A stretch of 64,000 bases of DNA from Escherichia coli (lineage in GTDB: Bacteria; Pseudomonadota; Gammaproteobacteria; Enterobacterales; Enterobacteriaceae). Position 1 is the stretch's first letter; each line of letters opens with the position of its first letter. The position numbers and the translations under genes were made by a program. The DNA is taken from assembly GCF_024223415.1 (NCBI RefSeq), contig NZ_CP100500.1. The stretch is one strand, 5' to 3'. The notes under the pieces are model-generated. The model saw only the letters and a list, made by a program, of their open reading frames with translations, ran no database searches and had not been told where the DNA came from. Below, one piece after another: positions 28,643-39,894 of the stretch.

Positions 28643-28718
28643 TTGTTTGTTGTTGTTCGTCGTTGTTCGTAGAGCTTCAACAAAATGTGTGGTCAGTTGT
28701 GTGGTCAGTTTTTTGAGG
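28643..28718 (+). repeat. Left-arm copy of a ~75-bp repeat shared by both island arms (candidate Int arm-type sites)
   Basis: 28653-28712 is 60/60 identical to 39831-39890. It contains tandem GTGTGGTCAGTT x2 and TTGTTCGT x2, and a further GTTGTTCGT copy lies near 28594. Confidence 0.8.
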
Positions 28719-28745: not shown

Positions 28746-29969
28746 GTGGGAAAAGCACTAAACAAACTGAGCGATTCGACGTTAAAAAAATTGGCGTCTG
28801 TCCAAGCAGAAAAAGAGCGTTTTTACTCCGACGGGGGCGGGCTGGAGATTAAACACTCAAAGGGCGGCAAATTAACCTGGTATTTCCGGTACCGAACGGG
28901 AGGCCGTGAGGTTGCCGCAGAGCGGTTAAAGCTGGGGGCTTACCCTGAATTGTCGCTGAAAGCTGCAAGGGAAAAACGCGCACAGTGCCGGGCATGGCTG
29001 GCTGAGGGTAAAAACCCCCGTTATGAGTTGTGCGCCACAGTACAGGAAGCGCTAAAACCCGTTACGGTGAAGGAGGCGATTAACTACTGGCTGGATGAAT
29101 ATGCGAAGGATAACCGCAAAGACTACATAAAGCTGGTGCAACGTATGGATAAGCACATCATTTGCCATATAGGGGCAATTCCCCTTGATAAGTGTGATAC
29201 AAGGCAGTGGATCGCATGTTTTGACCGTGTACGAAAAAAAGCACCAGTAGCAGCAGGGCACGTCATGCAAACCTGCAAACAGGCGCTAAAGTTCTGCCGC
29301 AGGAGACGCTACGCGTTCAGTAATGCCCTGGACGATTTGATCGTCAGCGATGTGGGTAAGAGAGCAGAAATTCGCGAGAGGGTGCACAGCAACAGCGAAT
29401 TAAAGGAAATTTTACGCGCTATTGATGGTGATGTGTTCGCGCCTTACTACAGCGCGTTAATGCGCTTGCTGATTGTGTTCGGGTGCAGAACGGCAGAGGT
29501 CAGACTTTCAGAGATCAAAGAATGGGATCTGAAAGAAATGTTGTGGACAGTGCCAAAAGAGCATAGCAAAACGAAGGTAACGATATTCAGGCCAATCCCC
29601 GATGGCATTTTGCCGTTCATTCAGAAGCTGGTGGAGCAGAACCGGCATACAGGGTTATTACTCGGAGAACTGAAAAAAGATACCACGGTAGCGCAATATG
29701 GGCGAAATGCGCATAAGCGGCTTAACCAGGAACACTGGACGCTGCATGACTTTCGCCACACGTTTACAACGATGCTGAACGATTTAGGTGTCGATCCGCA
29801 TATCGTGGAGCACATCACAGCGCATCAGATGCCCGGTCAGCAAAAAACCTATAACCATTCACGCTATTTACAGGCGAAGCGAGACGCTCTGAATCTGTGG
29901 GTTGAGCGCCTCGATGTGCTGGCTGGAAATCATGAAAATATTGTCATATTAAGGGCTGAAAATGAATAA
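28746..29969 (+). CDS. int: Tyrosine recombinase, P4-type integrase
   Basis: GTG start with a GAGGA RBS 7 nt upstream. The N-terminus resembles an arm-binding domain (GGGLEIKHSKGGKLTWYFRYR). The C-terminus has HDFRHTF...HQ...Y catalytic motifs. Confidence 0.9.
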   Translation: MGKALNKLSDSTLKKLASVQAEKERFYSDGGGLEIKHSKGGKLTWYFRYRTGGREVAAERLKLGAYPELSLKAAREKRAQCRAWLAEGKNPRYELCATVQEALKPVTVKEAINYWLDEYAKDNRKDYIKLVQRMDKHIICHIGAIPLDKCDTRQWIACFDRVRKKAPVAAGHVMQTCKQALKFCRRRRYAFSNALDDLIVSDVGKRAEIRERVHSNSELKEILRAIDGDVFAPYYSALMRLLIVFGCRTAEVRLSEIKEWDLKEMLWTVPKEHSKTKVTIFRPIPDGILPFIQKLVEQNRHTGLLLGELKKDTTVAQYGRNAHKRLNQEHWTLHDFRHTFTTMLNDLGVDPHIVEHITAHQMPGQQKTYNHSRYLQAKRDALNLWVERLDVLAGNHENIVILRAENE

Positions 29970-30837: not shown

Positions 30838-31062
30838 ATGAATCAAAATACACAATTTCAATCACTATCAGATCGCGTAATCCGTGAGGATGAATGCCGT
30901 AAGTTAACAGGAGTGTGCCGCACTACACGCTACGAACTGGAGAAAAAAGGGAGCTTTCCGTCTCGCCGTAATCTTGGTGGGCGTTCTGTAGGTTGGCTGC
31001 TGTCCGAGGTTATGGAATGGGTTAAAAGCCGGGATCGCATTAATTCAGGCAAGGCAGCGTAA
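30838..31062 (+). CDS. alpA: AlpA-family (prophage CP4-57 regulatory / excisionase-like) DNA-binding protein
   Basis: 74 aa with the motif RVIREDECRKLTGVCRTTRYELEKKGSFPSRRNLGGRSVGWLLSEVMEWV, typical of the AlpA/Vis family. Confidence 0.85.
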   Translation: MNQNTQFQSLSDRVIREDECRKLTGVCRTTRYELEKKGSFPSRRNLGGRSVGWLLSEVMEWVKSRDRINSGKAA

Positions 31063-32528: not shown

Positions 32529-32828
32529 ATGAAAAATAAAAATTCTGGCGTTAATGCCAGCGGCCCCGCTCGGCCTGAATTTATGAACGGCGATATTTAC
32601 CGCGACCAGTACGGCGGCACGGTAACGATTAAAGGCGTGGAGGAACGGCGCATCACTTACCGCCGTGAAGGCTACGAATATGATTGCGTGATGCCTGTTT
32701 ATCAGTTCCGGCGTGATTTTTCTCTGGTACAGGCAGCGCCCCGCAGTAAACCAACCAGCAGGGAGAAAGCACGCGCCAATATTCAGGAAATAAAAAAGAT
32801 GCTTAACGTATTCAGGGGTAAAAAATGA
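32529..32828 (+). CDS. Hypothetical 99-aa protein (DUF4222-like, common in enterobacterial prophage-like elements)
   Basis: The motif GDIYRDQYGGTVTIKGVEERRITYR supports the family assignment, which is from memory only. Confidence 0.5.
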   Translation: MKNKNSGVNASGPARPEFMNGDIYRDQYGGTVTIKGVEERRITYRREGYEYDCVMPVYQFRRDFSLVQAAPRSKPTSREKARANIQEIKKMLNVFRGKK

Positions 32829-34573
32829 AACTGGCACCGAACGTAAAAAAACAGCCGCGTGGAATAAAACACAAAGACACAGAGGTGATTATCTTTGCGG
32901 GTAGTGATGCCTGGGCGCACGCGAAACAGTGGCAGGAACAGGACGGCCCCGCATCCGGCGATGATGTGCCGCCTGTGTGGCTCGGGCCAAATCAGCTTGC
33001 TGAACTGGATGCACTGAAAATTGTACCGGAGGGAAAAAAACGCGTAAGGCTGTACAGGGCCGGAGAACTGGATTTGGTGGAGACCAAAAAGATTGGTCAG
33101 AAGCTGGCGGCGGCAGATATTCAGGATGCGAATTTTTACTCTGAAGGAATGCACGGCCAGAAGGTGCAGAACTGGCGGCGCTATCTGAGTGCTGAGCGTG
33201 AAAATATTGCCGCAGGGCTTACCATGCCGGAACAGAAAAAAGCACAACTTTCACAGATGGCAGACAGTGAACGGGCACAGCTTCTTTCTTCCCGCTTTGA
33301 TGGTGTCTGCGTCCATGCAGAAAGTGAAATCGTTCACGTATGGCGCGGCGGGGTATGGTGTCCGGTCAGCACAATGGAACTTAGCCGCGAAATGGTGGCG
33401 ATCTATTCAGAGCACAGGGCCACTTTCAGCAAGCGCGTAATCAATAACGCCGTGGAAGCGTTAAAAGTTATTGCCGAACCAATGGGCGAGCCGTCCGGCG
33501 ATTTGCTGCCGTTCGCCAATGGTGCGCTTGACCTGAAAACGGGGGAATTTTCCCCGCACACGCCGGAGAACTGGATCACCACGCACAACGGCATTGAGTA
33601 CACGCCACCAGCACCAGGGGAGAATATCTGCGACAACGCGCCAAACTTTCATAAATGGCTTGAGCACGCAGCCGGAAAAGACCCGCGCAAGATGATGCGT
33701 ATATGTGCCGCGCTGTACATGATTATGGCGAACCGGTACGACTGGCAGATGTTTATTGAGGCCACCGGAGACGGCGGGAGCGGCAAAAGTACATTCACAC
33801 ACATAGCCAGCCTTCTGGCAGGGAAACAGAACACGGTAAGCGCTGAGATGACATCGCTTGATGATGCTGGTGGGCGTGCGCAGGTTGTCGGGAGTCGGCT
33901 TATTGTCCTGGCAGACCAGCCGAAATATACAGGCGAAGGAACGGGCATCAAGAAAATCACGGGCGGAGACCCCGTGGAAATAAACCCGAAATATGAGAAG
34001 CGTTTTACGGCGGTAATCAGGGCGGTGGTGCTGGCTACCAACAATAACCCGATGATATTCACCGAACGGGCCGGAGGTGTGTCACGTCGTCGCGTAATTT
34101 TCCGTTTCGACAATATCGTCAGTGAGGCTGAAAAAGACAGGGAGCTACCGGAAAAGATTGCGGCTGAAATCCCTGTCATTATCCGCCGCTTGCTGGCGAA
34201 CTTTGCCGACCCTGAAAAGGCACGGGCTTTACTCATTGAACAGCGAGACGGTGATGAAGCTCTGGCAATAAAGCAACAGACGGATCCGGTTATTGAGTTT
34301 TGCCAGTTTCTGAATTTTCTGGAGGAAGCGCGCGGCCTGATGATGGGCGGCGGCGGTGACTCTTCCAGGTACACGACCAGAAACAGCCTTTACCGCGTCT
34401 ATCTGGCGTTTATGGCGTATGCAGGCAGGAGCAAACCGCTAAACGTAAATGACTTTGGCAAGGCTATGAAGCCAGCGGCGAAAGTTTACGGACATGAATA
34501 TATAACGCGCAGGATTAAAGGGTTTACGCAAACCAACGTGACAACAACAGACGACTGCGACGCGTTTTTATAA
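32825..34573 (+). CDS. Replication initiator/helicase, phage-plasmid primase P4-family C-terminal type (SF3 helicase); primase activity of the N-terminus is uncertain
   Basis: NGALDLKTGEF motif, Walker A GDGGSGKST and Walker B LIVLAD. ATGA overlap with the upstream gene. Iterons lie immediately downstream. Confidence 0.85.
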   Translation: MKLAPNVKKQPRGIKHKDTEVIIFAGSDAWAHAKQWQEQDGPASGDDVPPVWLGPNQLAELDALKIVPEGKKRVRLYRAGELDLVETKKIGQKLAAADIQDANFYSEGMHGQKVQNWRRYLSAERENIAAGLTMPEQKKAQLSQMADSERAQLLSSRFDGVCVHAESEIVHVWRGGVWCPVSTMELSREMVAIYSEHRATFSKRVINNAVEALKVIAEPMGEPSGDLLPFANGALDLKTGEFSPHTPENWITTHNGIEYTPPAPGENICDNAPNFHKWLEHAAGKDPRKMMRICAALYMIMANRYDWQMFIEATGDGGSGKSTFTHIASLLAGKQNTVSAEMTSLDDAGGRAQVVGSRLIVLADQPKYTGEGTGIKKITGGDPVEINPKYEKRFTAVIRAVVLATNNNPMIFTERAGGVSRRRVIFRFDNIVSEAEKDRELPEKIAAEIPVIIRRLLANFADPEKARALLIEQRDGDEALAIKQQTDPVIEFCQFLNFLEEARGLMMGGGGDSSRYTTRNSLYRVYLAFMAYAGRSKPLNVNDFGKAMKPAAKVYGHEYITRRIKGFTQTNVTTTDDCDAFL

Positions 34574-35809: not shown

Positions 35810-35815
35810 GCACAC

Positions 35816-35839
35816 AGCCGGAGCAATCCGGCTTTTTTG
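35816..35839 (+). terminator. Rho-independent terminator ending the replication/regulation operon
   Basis: agccgga-gcaa-tccggct followed by TTTTTG. Confidence 0.75.
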
Positions 35840-38085: not shown

Positions 38086-38090
38086 GACAA

Positions 38091-38114
38091 GGCCGGAGAA
38101 ATCCGGCTTTTTTT
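38091..38114 (+). terminator. Rho-independent terminator after the capsid module
   Basis: ggccgga-gaaa-tccggc followed by TTTTTTT. Confidence 0.75.
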
Positions 38115-38116
38115 GC

Positions 38117-38190
38117 GGGTCCTTTCCGGCATGTGGACCCGTTACGGGGCGTCGACCTCGCACGTTTTCGCTATTTATGACGTTTTTCCG
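38117..38190 (+). other. cos site 1 (plus orientation): lambda-like cosQ-cosN and the beginning of cosB
   Basis: gggtcctttccgg...cccgttacGGGCGTCGACCTcgcacgttttcgctatttatga matches recalled lambda gggtcctttccgg...ggttacgGGGCGGCGACCTcgcgggttttcgctatttatga. The 12-nt overhang equivalent is at 38147-38158 (11/12 identical to lambda). Confidence 0.8.
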
Positions 38191-38247
38191 TGAAGGTGAC
38201 ACCACCACCACTTGATTAATATTTAACCATGTAGTTAAGGTAACATT

Positions 38248-38682
38248 ATGATTGATAAAGCTTGTTTTGTAAGTCAGCAGGAAATAGCTGAACATTTCAA
38301 TGTTAACAGAACCACTATTCGCGCATGGACCAAACAGGGGATGCCGTATCTTAATGCGGATCGCGGAAAGTCTGGCGGTTATCACATCGGGCATACATTG
38401 TTTTGGTATTCAGGTAAAAGCCATCTTCAGACCATCGGATATCACGTAGAAACCAGTGCGCTGGAAAAAATTATGTTTGCCAGGCTGCTTTCATCTGAGC
38501 GTGACGAGTACTCCAGTGAAGAAACAGAACATCGATTTGATGAAGGTTTGCAGATTTACGGCTATTCACCGGAAGATGTGAGCAAGGCACGAAATAAAAT
38601 GGCTGGCTTTCTGGCTGGGTGGCGTCATGCCGTAAGCGTTCGCCGTGCCAGCATGGAGCAATCAGCCGATACAGAACAGTAA
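38248..38682 (+). CDS. Small terminase subunit, lambda Nu1-like (winged HTH N-terminus)
   Basis: VSQQEIAEHFNVNRTTIRAWTKQGMPYLNADRGKSGGYHIGHTLFWY parallels Nu1 KKQLADIFGASIRTIQNWQEQGMPVLRGGGKGNEVLYDSAAVIKWY. It lies just downstream of cos site 1, as Nu1 does in lambda. Confidence 0.75.
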   Translation: MIDKACFVSQQEIAEHFNVNRTTIRAWTKQGMPYLNADRGKSGGYHIGHTLFWYSGKSHLQTIGYHVETSALEKIMFARLLSSERDEYSSEETEHRFDEGLQIYGYSPEDVSKARNKMAGFLAGWRHAVSVRRASMEQSADTEQ

Positions 38683-38720
38683 AGCCGATAACTTGTTAAT
38701 CACGCGCAGCAATGCGTGTG

Positions 38721-38847
38721 ATTTTTGCACACTTCCGGTTAACGGGTACGATGTCCGGTTTGTTTGTACATTTTTTGCACATGTCCGGTTCGCAGAAAGC
38801 ATGTTTTTATATTTTTCAGATAGTTAACTTGCAGAGAAACCGGACAT
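38721..38847 (-). promoter_or_regulatory. cosB-like array of small-terminase binding-site candidates (ATGTCCGGTT repeats) belonging to cos site 2
   Basis: TTCCGGTT at 38733-38740. ATGTCCGGTT at 38751-38760 and 38781-38790. An inverted AACCGGACAT at 38838-38847. An AT-rich spacer at 38800-38830. Two copies carry the extended motif TTTTTGCACA. Confidence 0.6.
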
Positions 38848-38850
38848 GGA

Positions 38851-38930
38851 TCCCGAAAAATTTTCATAAATAGTGAAAACGCGCGGGTTCGACGCCCCGT
38901 AACGGGCCATAATTCCAGAAGGACCCGACG
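38851..38930 (-). other. cos site 2 (minus orientation): second lambda-like cosQ-cosN, convergent with cos site 1
   Basis: The minus strand reads gggtccttctgg...cccgttacGGGCGTCGAACCcgcgcgttttcactatttatgaaaattttt. The overhang equivalent is at 38886-38897 (9/12 to lambda). An 18-nt core (38889-38906) is identical to 38138-38155. Confidence 0.75.
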
Positions 38931-38960: not shown

Positions 38961-39242
38961 ATGACAGAAGCCGAACTACTGGGATTAATCCGCCGCGTTA
39001 CCGGAATCAGCCAGCAGCATGACGAACAGGCCACGCAGCCGGACAGCGTGACCGCCGAAAATTATGTGCGTGTTGTTGCGGAGGTGATGCGCCGTGACGG
39101 TATTGAGCTTAACGGCGTGGATATGCGCGACATACGGATCCGCGTTCTGGAAATGCTGGCATACCGTCGCCGCGTGCAGACGTACAGGGAAAAAGCAAAA
39201 ATAACGTACCACTGGAAGAAGCCGGAACGACTGCGTACGTAA
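38961..39242 (+). CDS. Hypothetical 93-aa protein
   Basis: ORF with a GGGGG RBS. It ends in the palindrome CGTACGTA-A-TACGTACG (39233-39249). Confidence 0.45.
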   Translation: MTEAELLGLIRRVTGISQQHDEQATQPDSVTAENYVRVVAEVMRRDGIELNGVDMRDIRIRVLEMLAYRRRVQTYREKAKITYHWKKPERLRT

Positions 39243-39820: not shown

Positions 39821-39894
39821 TTGTTTGTTATTGTTCGTCGTTGTTCGTAGAGCTTCAACAAAATGTGTGGTCAGTTGTGTGGTCAGTTTTGAGG
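39821..39894 (+). repeat. Right-arm copy of the ~75-bp repeat shared by both island arms
   Basis: 39831-39890 is identical to 28653-28712. Confidence 0.8.

Follow-up and report, generated by a model that had tools for sequence, protein, structure and literature searches.

Why should a chromosomal island carry two cos sites that face each other across a single gene? The question is raised by a 64,000-nucleotide stretch of Escherichia coli DNA (NCBI RefSeq assembly GCF_024223415.1, contig NZ_CP100500.1; called the window below), in which an 11.2-kb element carries two convergent lambda-like sites, cos1 (site 1) and cos2 (site 2), on either side of rpp, a gene for a 144-aa protein. As judged from its sequence, cos2 reproduces in full the cos of PhiR12-like lambdoid phages, with cosQ, cosN, R3, an I1-like spacer, R2 and R1. 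We think it probable that the locus is a packaging module, in which two convergent cos sites of different cosB specificity flank rpp and offer independent entries to different classes of helper phage.

Two facing cos sites and the gene between them

The pair had been noticed in an original prediction made from the letters of the window, all coordinates and sequences of which were verified. Both sites can be aligned with the lambda cos from cosQ through I2, and BLAST matches both to cos regions of lambdoid phages. They lie within an inverted repeat (38124-38193 and 38851-38920; 70 nt, 79% complementary in a repeat search) and share the identical 18-mer CCCGTTACGGGGCGTCGA; besides these two, the window contains no cosN-like site. 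By our estimate, an exact inverted 18-mer match within 1 kb is expected by chance at a rate of ∼1e-5, far too low for one copy to be a likely chance match to the other.

From the lambda cos (cosQ-cosN-I2-R3-I1-R2-R1-Nu1), the sites retain the cosQ box and its distance to cosN, the CG dinucleotides on either side of cosN, the I2 segment and an R3 in the lambda position (bp 50-65); unlike it, they have other R sequences and come as two copies facing each other. The predicted asymmetry between them also held: ATGTCCGGTT occurs exactly three times in the window, at 38751, 38781 and, on the minus strand, 38838, all beside site 2, and such an array is missing from site 1. Cos2 has the parts of a lambda-type site, i.e. 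a cosQ box, a 12-bp cosN with flanking CG, I2 and a cosB with R3, its R2 and R1 being inverted relative to R3. A cognate terS in cis is lacking; the array abuts the antisense end of rpp, and the cognate Nu1 is found only in phages. Cos1, with a single R3-type site, resembles the cos of N15.

The gene between the sites had been taken for a small-terminase gene, an assignment that did not survive. Its 144-aa product matches PDB 6hlk, the crystal structure of RppC (E=1.6e-33), is identical to RppA (c1503) of EcCICFT073 at 137 of 144 positions and gives only a weak N-terminal match to Nu1. By homology, then, the protein is Rpp, a predicted mimic of the DNA-binding domain of TerS that lacks the TerL-binding tail.

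The prediction knew of no other cos elements with two opposed cos sites. In fact, paired cos sites around rpp are already known from EcCICFT073-type islands and have been genetically dissected, so that the core observation is not new. Both EcCICFT073 sites were reported, and each was deleted (Fillol-Salom et al., ISME J 2018, PMC6092414; Mol Cell 2019, PMC6739421); transfer by lambda and phi80 was lower in the Δcos1 mutant, higher in the Δcos2 mutant and abolished in the double deletion. RppA binds the helper TerS, and the complex recognises the cosB region of cos1, not that of cos2 (Fillol-Salom 2019, PMC6739421). Likewise, a cos1 plasmid was stimulated by RppA and a cos2 plasmid was not, the specificity lying in the cosB region of cos1, and the cloned CFT073 cos2 plasmid does get transduced (PMC6092414, PMC6739421). 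Figure S1A of PMC6739421 allowed us to match the published cos1 to site 1, reading into rpp, and cos2 to the reverse complement of site 2, and the CFT073 genome bore this out. According to Murialdo and Feiss (2022, PMC9026076), the island R3 lies at bp 48-65, bp 55-63 are invariant and rpp starts at ∼bp 102; the window agrees with this layout, having ACCACCACC at bp 55-63 and the rpp ATG at bp 102. Why some phage-inducible chromosomal islands (PICIs) carry two cos sites was left open by PMC6739421. The 2018 authors (PMC6092414) cite SaPIbov4 of S. aureus, from an unrelated sequence family, as a satellite with two putative cos sites.

Because of its Rpp homology, its PICI gene set, its att repeats and the match to the published cos1 and cos2, the 11.2-kb element can be identified as a PICI of the EcCICFT073 family. 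The window island and EcCICFT073 share the order gpE-like gene, gpD-like gene, hypothetical gene, cos1, rppA, cos2 and 93-aa open reading frame, the R3-PICI box at cos1, the ATGTCCGGTT array at cos2 and the convergent orientation. They differ in integration site (rcnR-thiM in the window, roxA-phoQ for EcCICFT073), in the cos2 cosB haplotype, the window having the other of two phage haplotypes, and in cosN: the window has G6T at both sites plus C10A and T12C at cos2, whereas CFT073 has the canonical GGGCGGCGACCT twice. Islands of Klebsiella, Salmonella and Phytobacter, each with one cos, have the R3-PICI box ahead of rpp too; these loci were obtained via contigs encoding Rpp homologues, and searching the species-representative genome collection with the Rpp protein and an Rpp alignment yielded no locus.

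The phage-type cosB of cos2 and proposed routes of packaging

Site 2 is 86% identical over 178 nt to the cos region of Escherichia phages PhiR12_1 to PhiR12_5 (BLAST), where the matching region stands immediately upstream of Nu1 and gpA. The alignment with PhiR12_1 is collinear through cosQ, cosN, I2, R3, the A/T-rich spacer, R2 and R1, and homology stops directly after R1. Thus, in PhiR12-like phages (PV340549 and relatives; L023) the array is followed by Nu1 and gpA, whereas in the island it is followed by the antisense 3' end of rpp. From cosN to R1, site 2 is near-identical to the IMG/VR phage L023, whose Nu1 is 100% identical to that of PhiR12. Beyond R1, on the island side of the end of phage homology, a degenerate fourth R-like element (CTTCCGGTTAA, 38727-38742) overlaps the tail of the rpp terminator.

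Two cosB haplotypes were found, each common to islands and phages: the first in the window, Ch1 and GF4 islands and in phage L023, the second in the CFT073, FCI5 and ECCNB12-2 islands and in PhiR12_1. This sharing points to continuing exchange. Other islands have a phi4/21-type or CAGATCC-type phage cosB at the position of cos2. All islands examined agree in the sequence of R3, R2 and R1 and in the spacing from cosN to R3. The putative second helper class is abundant, as 1152 of 5426 complete E. coli genomes (21%) contain the PhiR12-type cosB-Nu1 junction; in strain EC21Z-144, the junction and an RppA island are 38 kb apart. Two further loci were observed. The GF4 island (L018 2524-3071) has lost most of rpp and has two facing phage-type cos sites, with a PhiR12-type cosB at one side and an L020/L025-type cosB at the other. 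The IMG/VR contig 3300008491_000088 (L027, 1705-4614) joins island-type gpE and gpD genes (99-100% to the window) to a cos, a PhiR12-type cosB, PhiR12 Nu1 (100%) and gpA; this is either a genuine recombinant of island and phage or a chimera of assembly, joined at the cos region common to both.

How might the two sites work? At cos1, Rpp would heterodimerise with the helper TerS, and the heterodimer would bind R3-PICI (ACCACCACC, bp 55-63) and position the helper TerL to nick cosN1; from this nick, island concatemers would be packaged rightward instead of phage DNA. The mechanism is experimentally established for EcCICFT073, and we infer it here from 95% protein identity and near-identical DNA. 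At cos2, the unmodified terminase of PhiR12-like helpers would act directly, opening the island to a second helper class without Rpp. As the sites are inverted and packaging has lambda polarity, neither would end packaging begun at the other, so that each would generate matched ends by an independent route. Four island units come to 44.7 kb, or 0.92 of a lambda genome, which agrees with the reported phage-sized capsids. The shared cosQ-cosN arms could, in addition, let the 0.74-kb cassette between them flip or be swapped by recombination, and E. coli genomes do hold the cassette in both orientations and in several types. A second, Rpp-independent entry used directly by PhiR12-type terminases is the most likely single role for cos2, and we propose it tentatively.

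Dual helper specificity had been among the explanations offered at the outset, and it is the part of that proposal we favour; the roles assigned to the sites have to be exchanged. Since site 1 corresponds to the Rpp-dependent and essential cos1 and site 2 has a phage-type cosB, site 1 is the private site and site 2 the helper-like one. The opposite assignment, in which site 1 mimics a helper cos and site 2 is a private cos with a new cohesive end, has the overhangs in its favour, 11/12 identical to lambda at site 1 and 9/12 at site 2, and is hardly credible. Specificity lies in cosB, not in the overhang: the cosB of site 1 is an island-specific R3-PICI recognised through Rpp, that of site 2 matches the corresponding phage cosB, and published cosB-swap experiments (PMC6739421) contradict the assignment. 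Moreover, right-half cosN variants are not discriminated by the lambda TerL (PMC4669245).

Nor does the 9/12 overhang imply a specificity of its own. G6T (GGGCGTCGACCT) is a natural variant in real phages, where the lambdoid IMG/VR contigs that have it represent at least four Nu1/cosB types, and it is present at both cos sites of the ECCNB12-2 island. Thirteen genomes have a site-1 arm with G6T and 19 have an L019-type prophage with G6T; six are in both lists (ECCNB12-2, TUM9803, GF60, TUM1886, strain 135 and Ch1, mostly poultry-associated), compared with ∼0.05 expected by chance, although the strains may be related and the overlap is only a lead. Only three site 2 overhangs, those of the window, Ch1 and GF4, were found to combine C10A with T12C, Ch1 having C4A and GF4 C7G in addition, and no GGGCGTCGAACC-type overhang was found in IMG/VR. 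According to Feiss et al. (2015, PMC4669245), changes are tolerated at positions 7-12 of cosN, where N15, phiD326 and Gifsy-1 show natural variation; what is conserved is the CG dinucleotides on its flanks, and a 2-bp end mismatch lowers the yield only about four-fold (PMC4669245). Given this tolerance, site 2 can be called neither dead nor re-specified from its sequence. Its overhang is enriched in substitutions (5/12 columns versus 28/246 outside, p=0.01); decay of the cleavage site, which such clustering might indicate, was dropped as a firm claim in view of the tolerance of cosN (PMC4669245).

Several observations weigh against use of cos2 as a second entry. With lambda and phi80 the site is dispensable and mildly harmful (PMC6092414, PMC6739421), and CFT073's own helper, phage 4, has a cosB unlike cos2. 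If Rpp also sequestered PhiR12-type TerS, cos2 would be useless during rpp expression. One cos is enough for the Rpp islands of Klebsiella, Salmonella and Phytobacter. The closest phage to share the cos2 cosB type of the O157-type island is rare (19/5426 genomes), and no O157-labelled strain is among those 19, so that this island lends no support from a resident prophage. Finally, cosN2 of the window differs at three positions, and Ch1 adds the left-half change C4A, which may impair nicking.

Some of these points suit another explanation, namely that cos2 has no function and is a near-neutral or slightly costly by-product of island-prophage recombination at the shared cosQ-cosN, which persists through repeated re-import. 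Deletion of cos2 does not lower transfer and raises it with lambda; none of the Rpp islands examined outside E. coli has a cos2, and islands and phages have cosB haplotypes in common. The poultry-associated strains that have G6T in island and prophage alike (the six genomes in both lists), the rpp-deficient GF4 island with its two phage-type sites, and the enrichment of substitutions in the cos2 overhang likewise fit this explanation. We nevertheless regard a mere by-product as somewhat unlikely. R3, R2 and R1 are invariant among the islands compared, with the distance from cosN to R3 preserved; the whole array is intact in the examined islands of both cassette types described below, whose cassettes occur in several hundred genomes; and a site that lowers transfer by non-cognate helpers would be expected to disappear unless compensated.

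An array that stays intact beside a cosN that has drifted in the window lineage could also serve as a decoy: amplified cos2 R sites would soak up PhiR12-type TerS or stall the terminase, as a second layer of interference. EcCICFT073 replicates on induction (PMC6092414, PMC6739421), which would provide the copies. A decoy is quite unlikely, as CFT073 and most relatives have a canonical cosN2, transduction works with the cloned cos2, and interference is already supplied by Rpp.

Inversion and exchange of the cassette

An invertible cassette had also been suggested, and both orientations do exist in nature. Complete E. coli genomes were searched with the segment 38194-38850 reverse-complemented between its native flanks. 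The Rpp cassette was inverted in 15 genomes, as a single collinear piece with 99% coverage, and native in 67; for a second, TerS-type (O157-type) cassette, the counts were five and 486, the inverted copies sitting at two different chromosomal sites. In MSB1_7A, rpp is on the strand opposite to the capsid genes, and in FCI5 the identical protein accession is on the capsid-gene strand. The two islands are 100% identical over the 813 nt of cassette and arms, which are inverted relative to each other between flanks of 99.2-99.4% identity. Crossovers fall in the cosQ-cosN part of the arms, where the two arms are identical over 46 nt in islands of the MSB1_7A/FCI5 type. The arms of the window share only 18 identical nt, and flipping should therefore be rarer there.

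Inversions in both cassette types, and at two integration sites for the TerS type, argue that the event is recurrent. That it is a programmed switch, in which the 0.74-kb segment flips at high frequency and so changes the direction of packaging or the expression of rpp, is highly improbable, even though exact inversions with zero divergence exist and both cassette types were caught inverted in at least three independent contexts. We found no invertase in or near the cassette, whose only gene is rpp; the sole recombinase is the island integrase, 9 kb away. The ratios are heavily skewed (67:15 and 486:5), and the 15 inverted Rpp-type matches score identically, as would be expected of one clone. 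Among 217 genomes ≥99% identical to the O157-type query none had the inverted form, the inverted matches being 90-92% identical, and the short identity between the window arms tells against frequent flipping too. The invertible cassette thus stands as regards the two orientations but not as a switch; inversion looks like sporadic recombination within the arms.

The cassette is exchanged as well as flipped. In TerS-type sister islands, e.g. the roxA-phoQ island of E. coli O157:H7, the same flanks and cosQ-cosN arms (91-93% identity) enclose a full-length Nu1 homologue (36% identical to lambda Nu1) in place of rpp. In O157:H7 Z910 (L002 14092-14981) and several hundred related genomes, a GGTGGTGGTGG box follows cos1, and cos2 has a CAGATCC-type cosB of lambda organisation. 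As these islands retain the flanks and arms but swap what lies between, the arms bound a swappable specificity cassette.

Cleavage at cos might itself drive this exchange. The facing sites would then delimit a packaging-specificity cassette (R3, rpp or terS, terminator and phage-type cosB) that is flipped or exchanged when both are cut: the cassette would be released with two identical 5' overhangs, leaving a backbone with two complementary ones, and the pieces would re-anneal in either orientation or with the cassette of another element. Such a mechanism is unlikely. If true, it would make cos a terminase-dependent site-specific recombination site that allows swapping between islands and phages, and the published question of why a pair of cos sites is found in some PICIs would have its answer in cos2.

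The words inverted, inversion and orientation (in this sense) are absent from PMC6092414, PMC6739421 and PMC9026076, and a search of the literature on PhiR12 phages retrieved nothing relevant. The phage-type nature of cos2, the haplotypes common to islands and phages, and the inversions and swaps of the cassette in nature were not found in the literature searched and may be new. The 2018 and 2019 papers also lack the occurrence of the G6T cohesive end in real phages.

The island, its relatives and its possible helpers

The island is 11,178 bp long and lies between rcnR and thiM, its edges formed by copies of a 70-nt direct repeat that are 99% identical; the thiM and thiD open reading frames start from 40049, to the right of it. 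It carries what is expected of an EcCICFT073-type cos PICI, i.e. att repeats, a terminal integrase, alpA, a primase, rpp and the island-specific R3 (Table 1). SSB and PerC are also encoded, on the plus strand like AlpA and the primase. Between the att repeats, the gpE- and gpD-like genes are the only late genes, and no large terminase, portal, tail or lysis gene was found there. Excision, replication and high-frequency transfer upon induction by a helper, together with interference against it, have been demonstrated for CFT073 only.

Table 1. Coordinates of island features in the window (distances in bp are from the nick).
Feature	Position	Strand	Sequence or basis
attL (left repeat copy)	28643-28712		70-nt direct repeat comparison
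Tyrosine integrase	28746-29969	+	Pfam Arm-DNA-bind_3, Phage_integrase
AlpA regulator	30838-31062	+	Pfam Phage_AlpA, E=4e-16
D5-type primase/helicase, replication module	32825-34573	+	Pfam D5_N, DUF5906, Pox_D5
Lambda gpE-like major capsid gene, 351 aa	36257-37312	+	Pfam Phage_cap_E, E=1e-50
gpD-like decoration gene, 111 aa	37324-37659	+	Pfam HDPD, E=1.7e-17
GC hairpin and T-run, terminator-like, immediately upstream of cosQ1	38087-38113	+	Sequence
cosQ of cos1	38117-38124	+	GGGTCCTT
cos1 cohesive-end equivalent	38147-38158	+	GGGCGTCGACCT; G6T relative to lambda, flanking CG dinucleotides kept
R3-PICI, proposed Rpp-TerS binding site, bp 48-65	38194-38211	+	AGGTGACACCACCACCAC; proposal of PMC9026076
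R3-PICI core box, bp 55-63	38201-38209	+	ACCACCACC
rpp (RppA-type redirecting-phage-packaging protein, 144 aa), start codon bp 102	38248-38682	+
Terminator-like hairpin and T-run after rpp	38701-38727	+	Terminator scan
cosB of cos2	38751-38847	-	Collinear with cosB of PhiR12_1 and IMG/VR phage L023
R1 of cos2	38751-38760		ATGTCCGGTT
R2 of cos2	38781-38790		ATGTCCGGTT; A/T-rich I1-like spacer between R2 and R3
R3 of cos2, bp 51-60	38838-38847	-	ATGTCCGGTT
cos2 cohesive-end equivalent	38886-38897	-	GGGCGTCGAACC; changes at bp 6, 10 and 12
cosQ of cos2	38919-38926	-	GGGTCCTT
Conserved 93-aa open reading frame, right flank of the cassette in every relative examined	38961-39242	+
attR (right repeat copy), just upstream of thiM	39821-39890		70-nt direct repeat comparison

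The 27-nt terminator-like hairpin (GCCGGAG.AATCCGGCTTTTTT) upstream of cosQ1 is present twice with 89% identity, the other copy lying after the PerC gene (35812-35838); the copy at 38087-38113 was absent from the output of the terminator scan. The CFT073 island is also annotated with gpE-like and gpD-like genes, although the 2018 paper denies EcCICFT073 capsid morphogenesis genes; a later paper reported capsid genes in 21 of 29 Gram-negative PICIs and found them unneeded for transfer.

The same gene order recurs in >1000 complete E. coli genomes, at several integration sites, which in these relatives also include roxA-phoQ, tRNA-Pro/yejO and a position near mdtJ. In Salmonella enterica GCA_010554665.1 (L012 1183-3923), a single-cos rpp island lies directly upstream of thiM-thiD as in the window, so that the same chromosomal target seems to be used in two genera.

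As cos2 copies the whole cos of a phage group that is very common in E. coli, the question of why two cos sites are found in some PICIs gains a concrete, testable answer: the island may ride a second class of helper without Rpp. From the inversions and swaps observed in nature, moreover, the cosQ-cosN arms are seen to be recombination boundaries at which packaging specificity is shuffled between satellites and phages, which is relevant to predicting which phages mobilise which islands.

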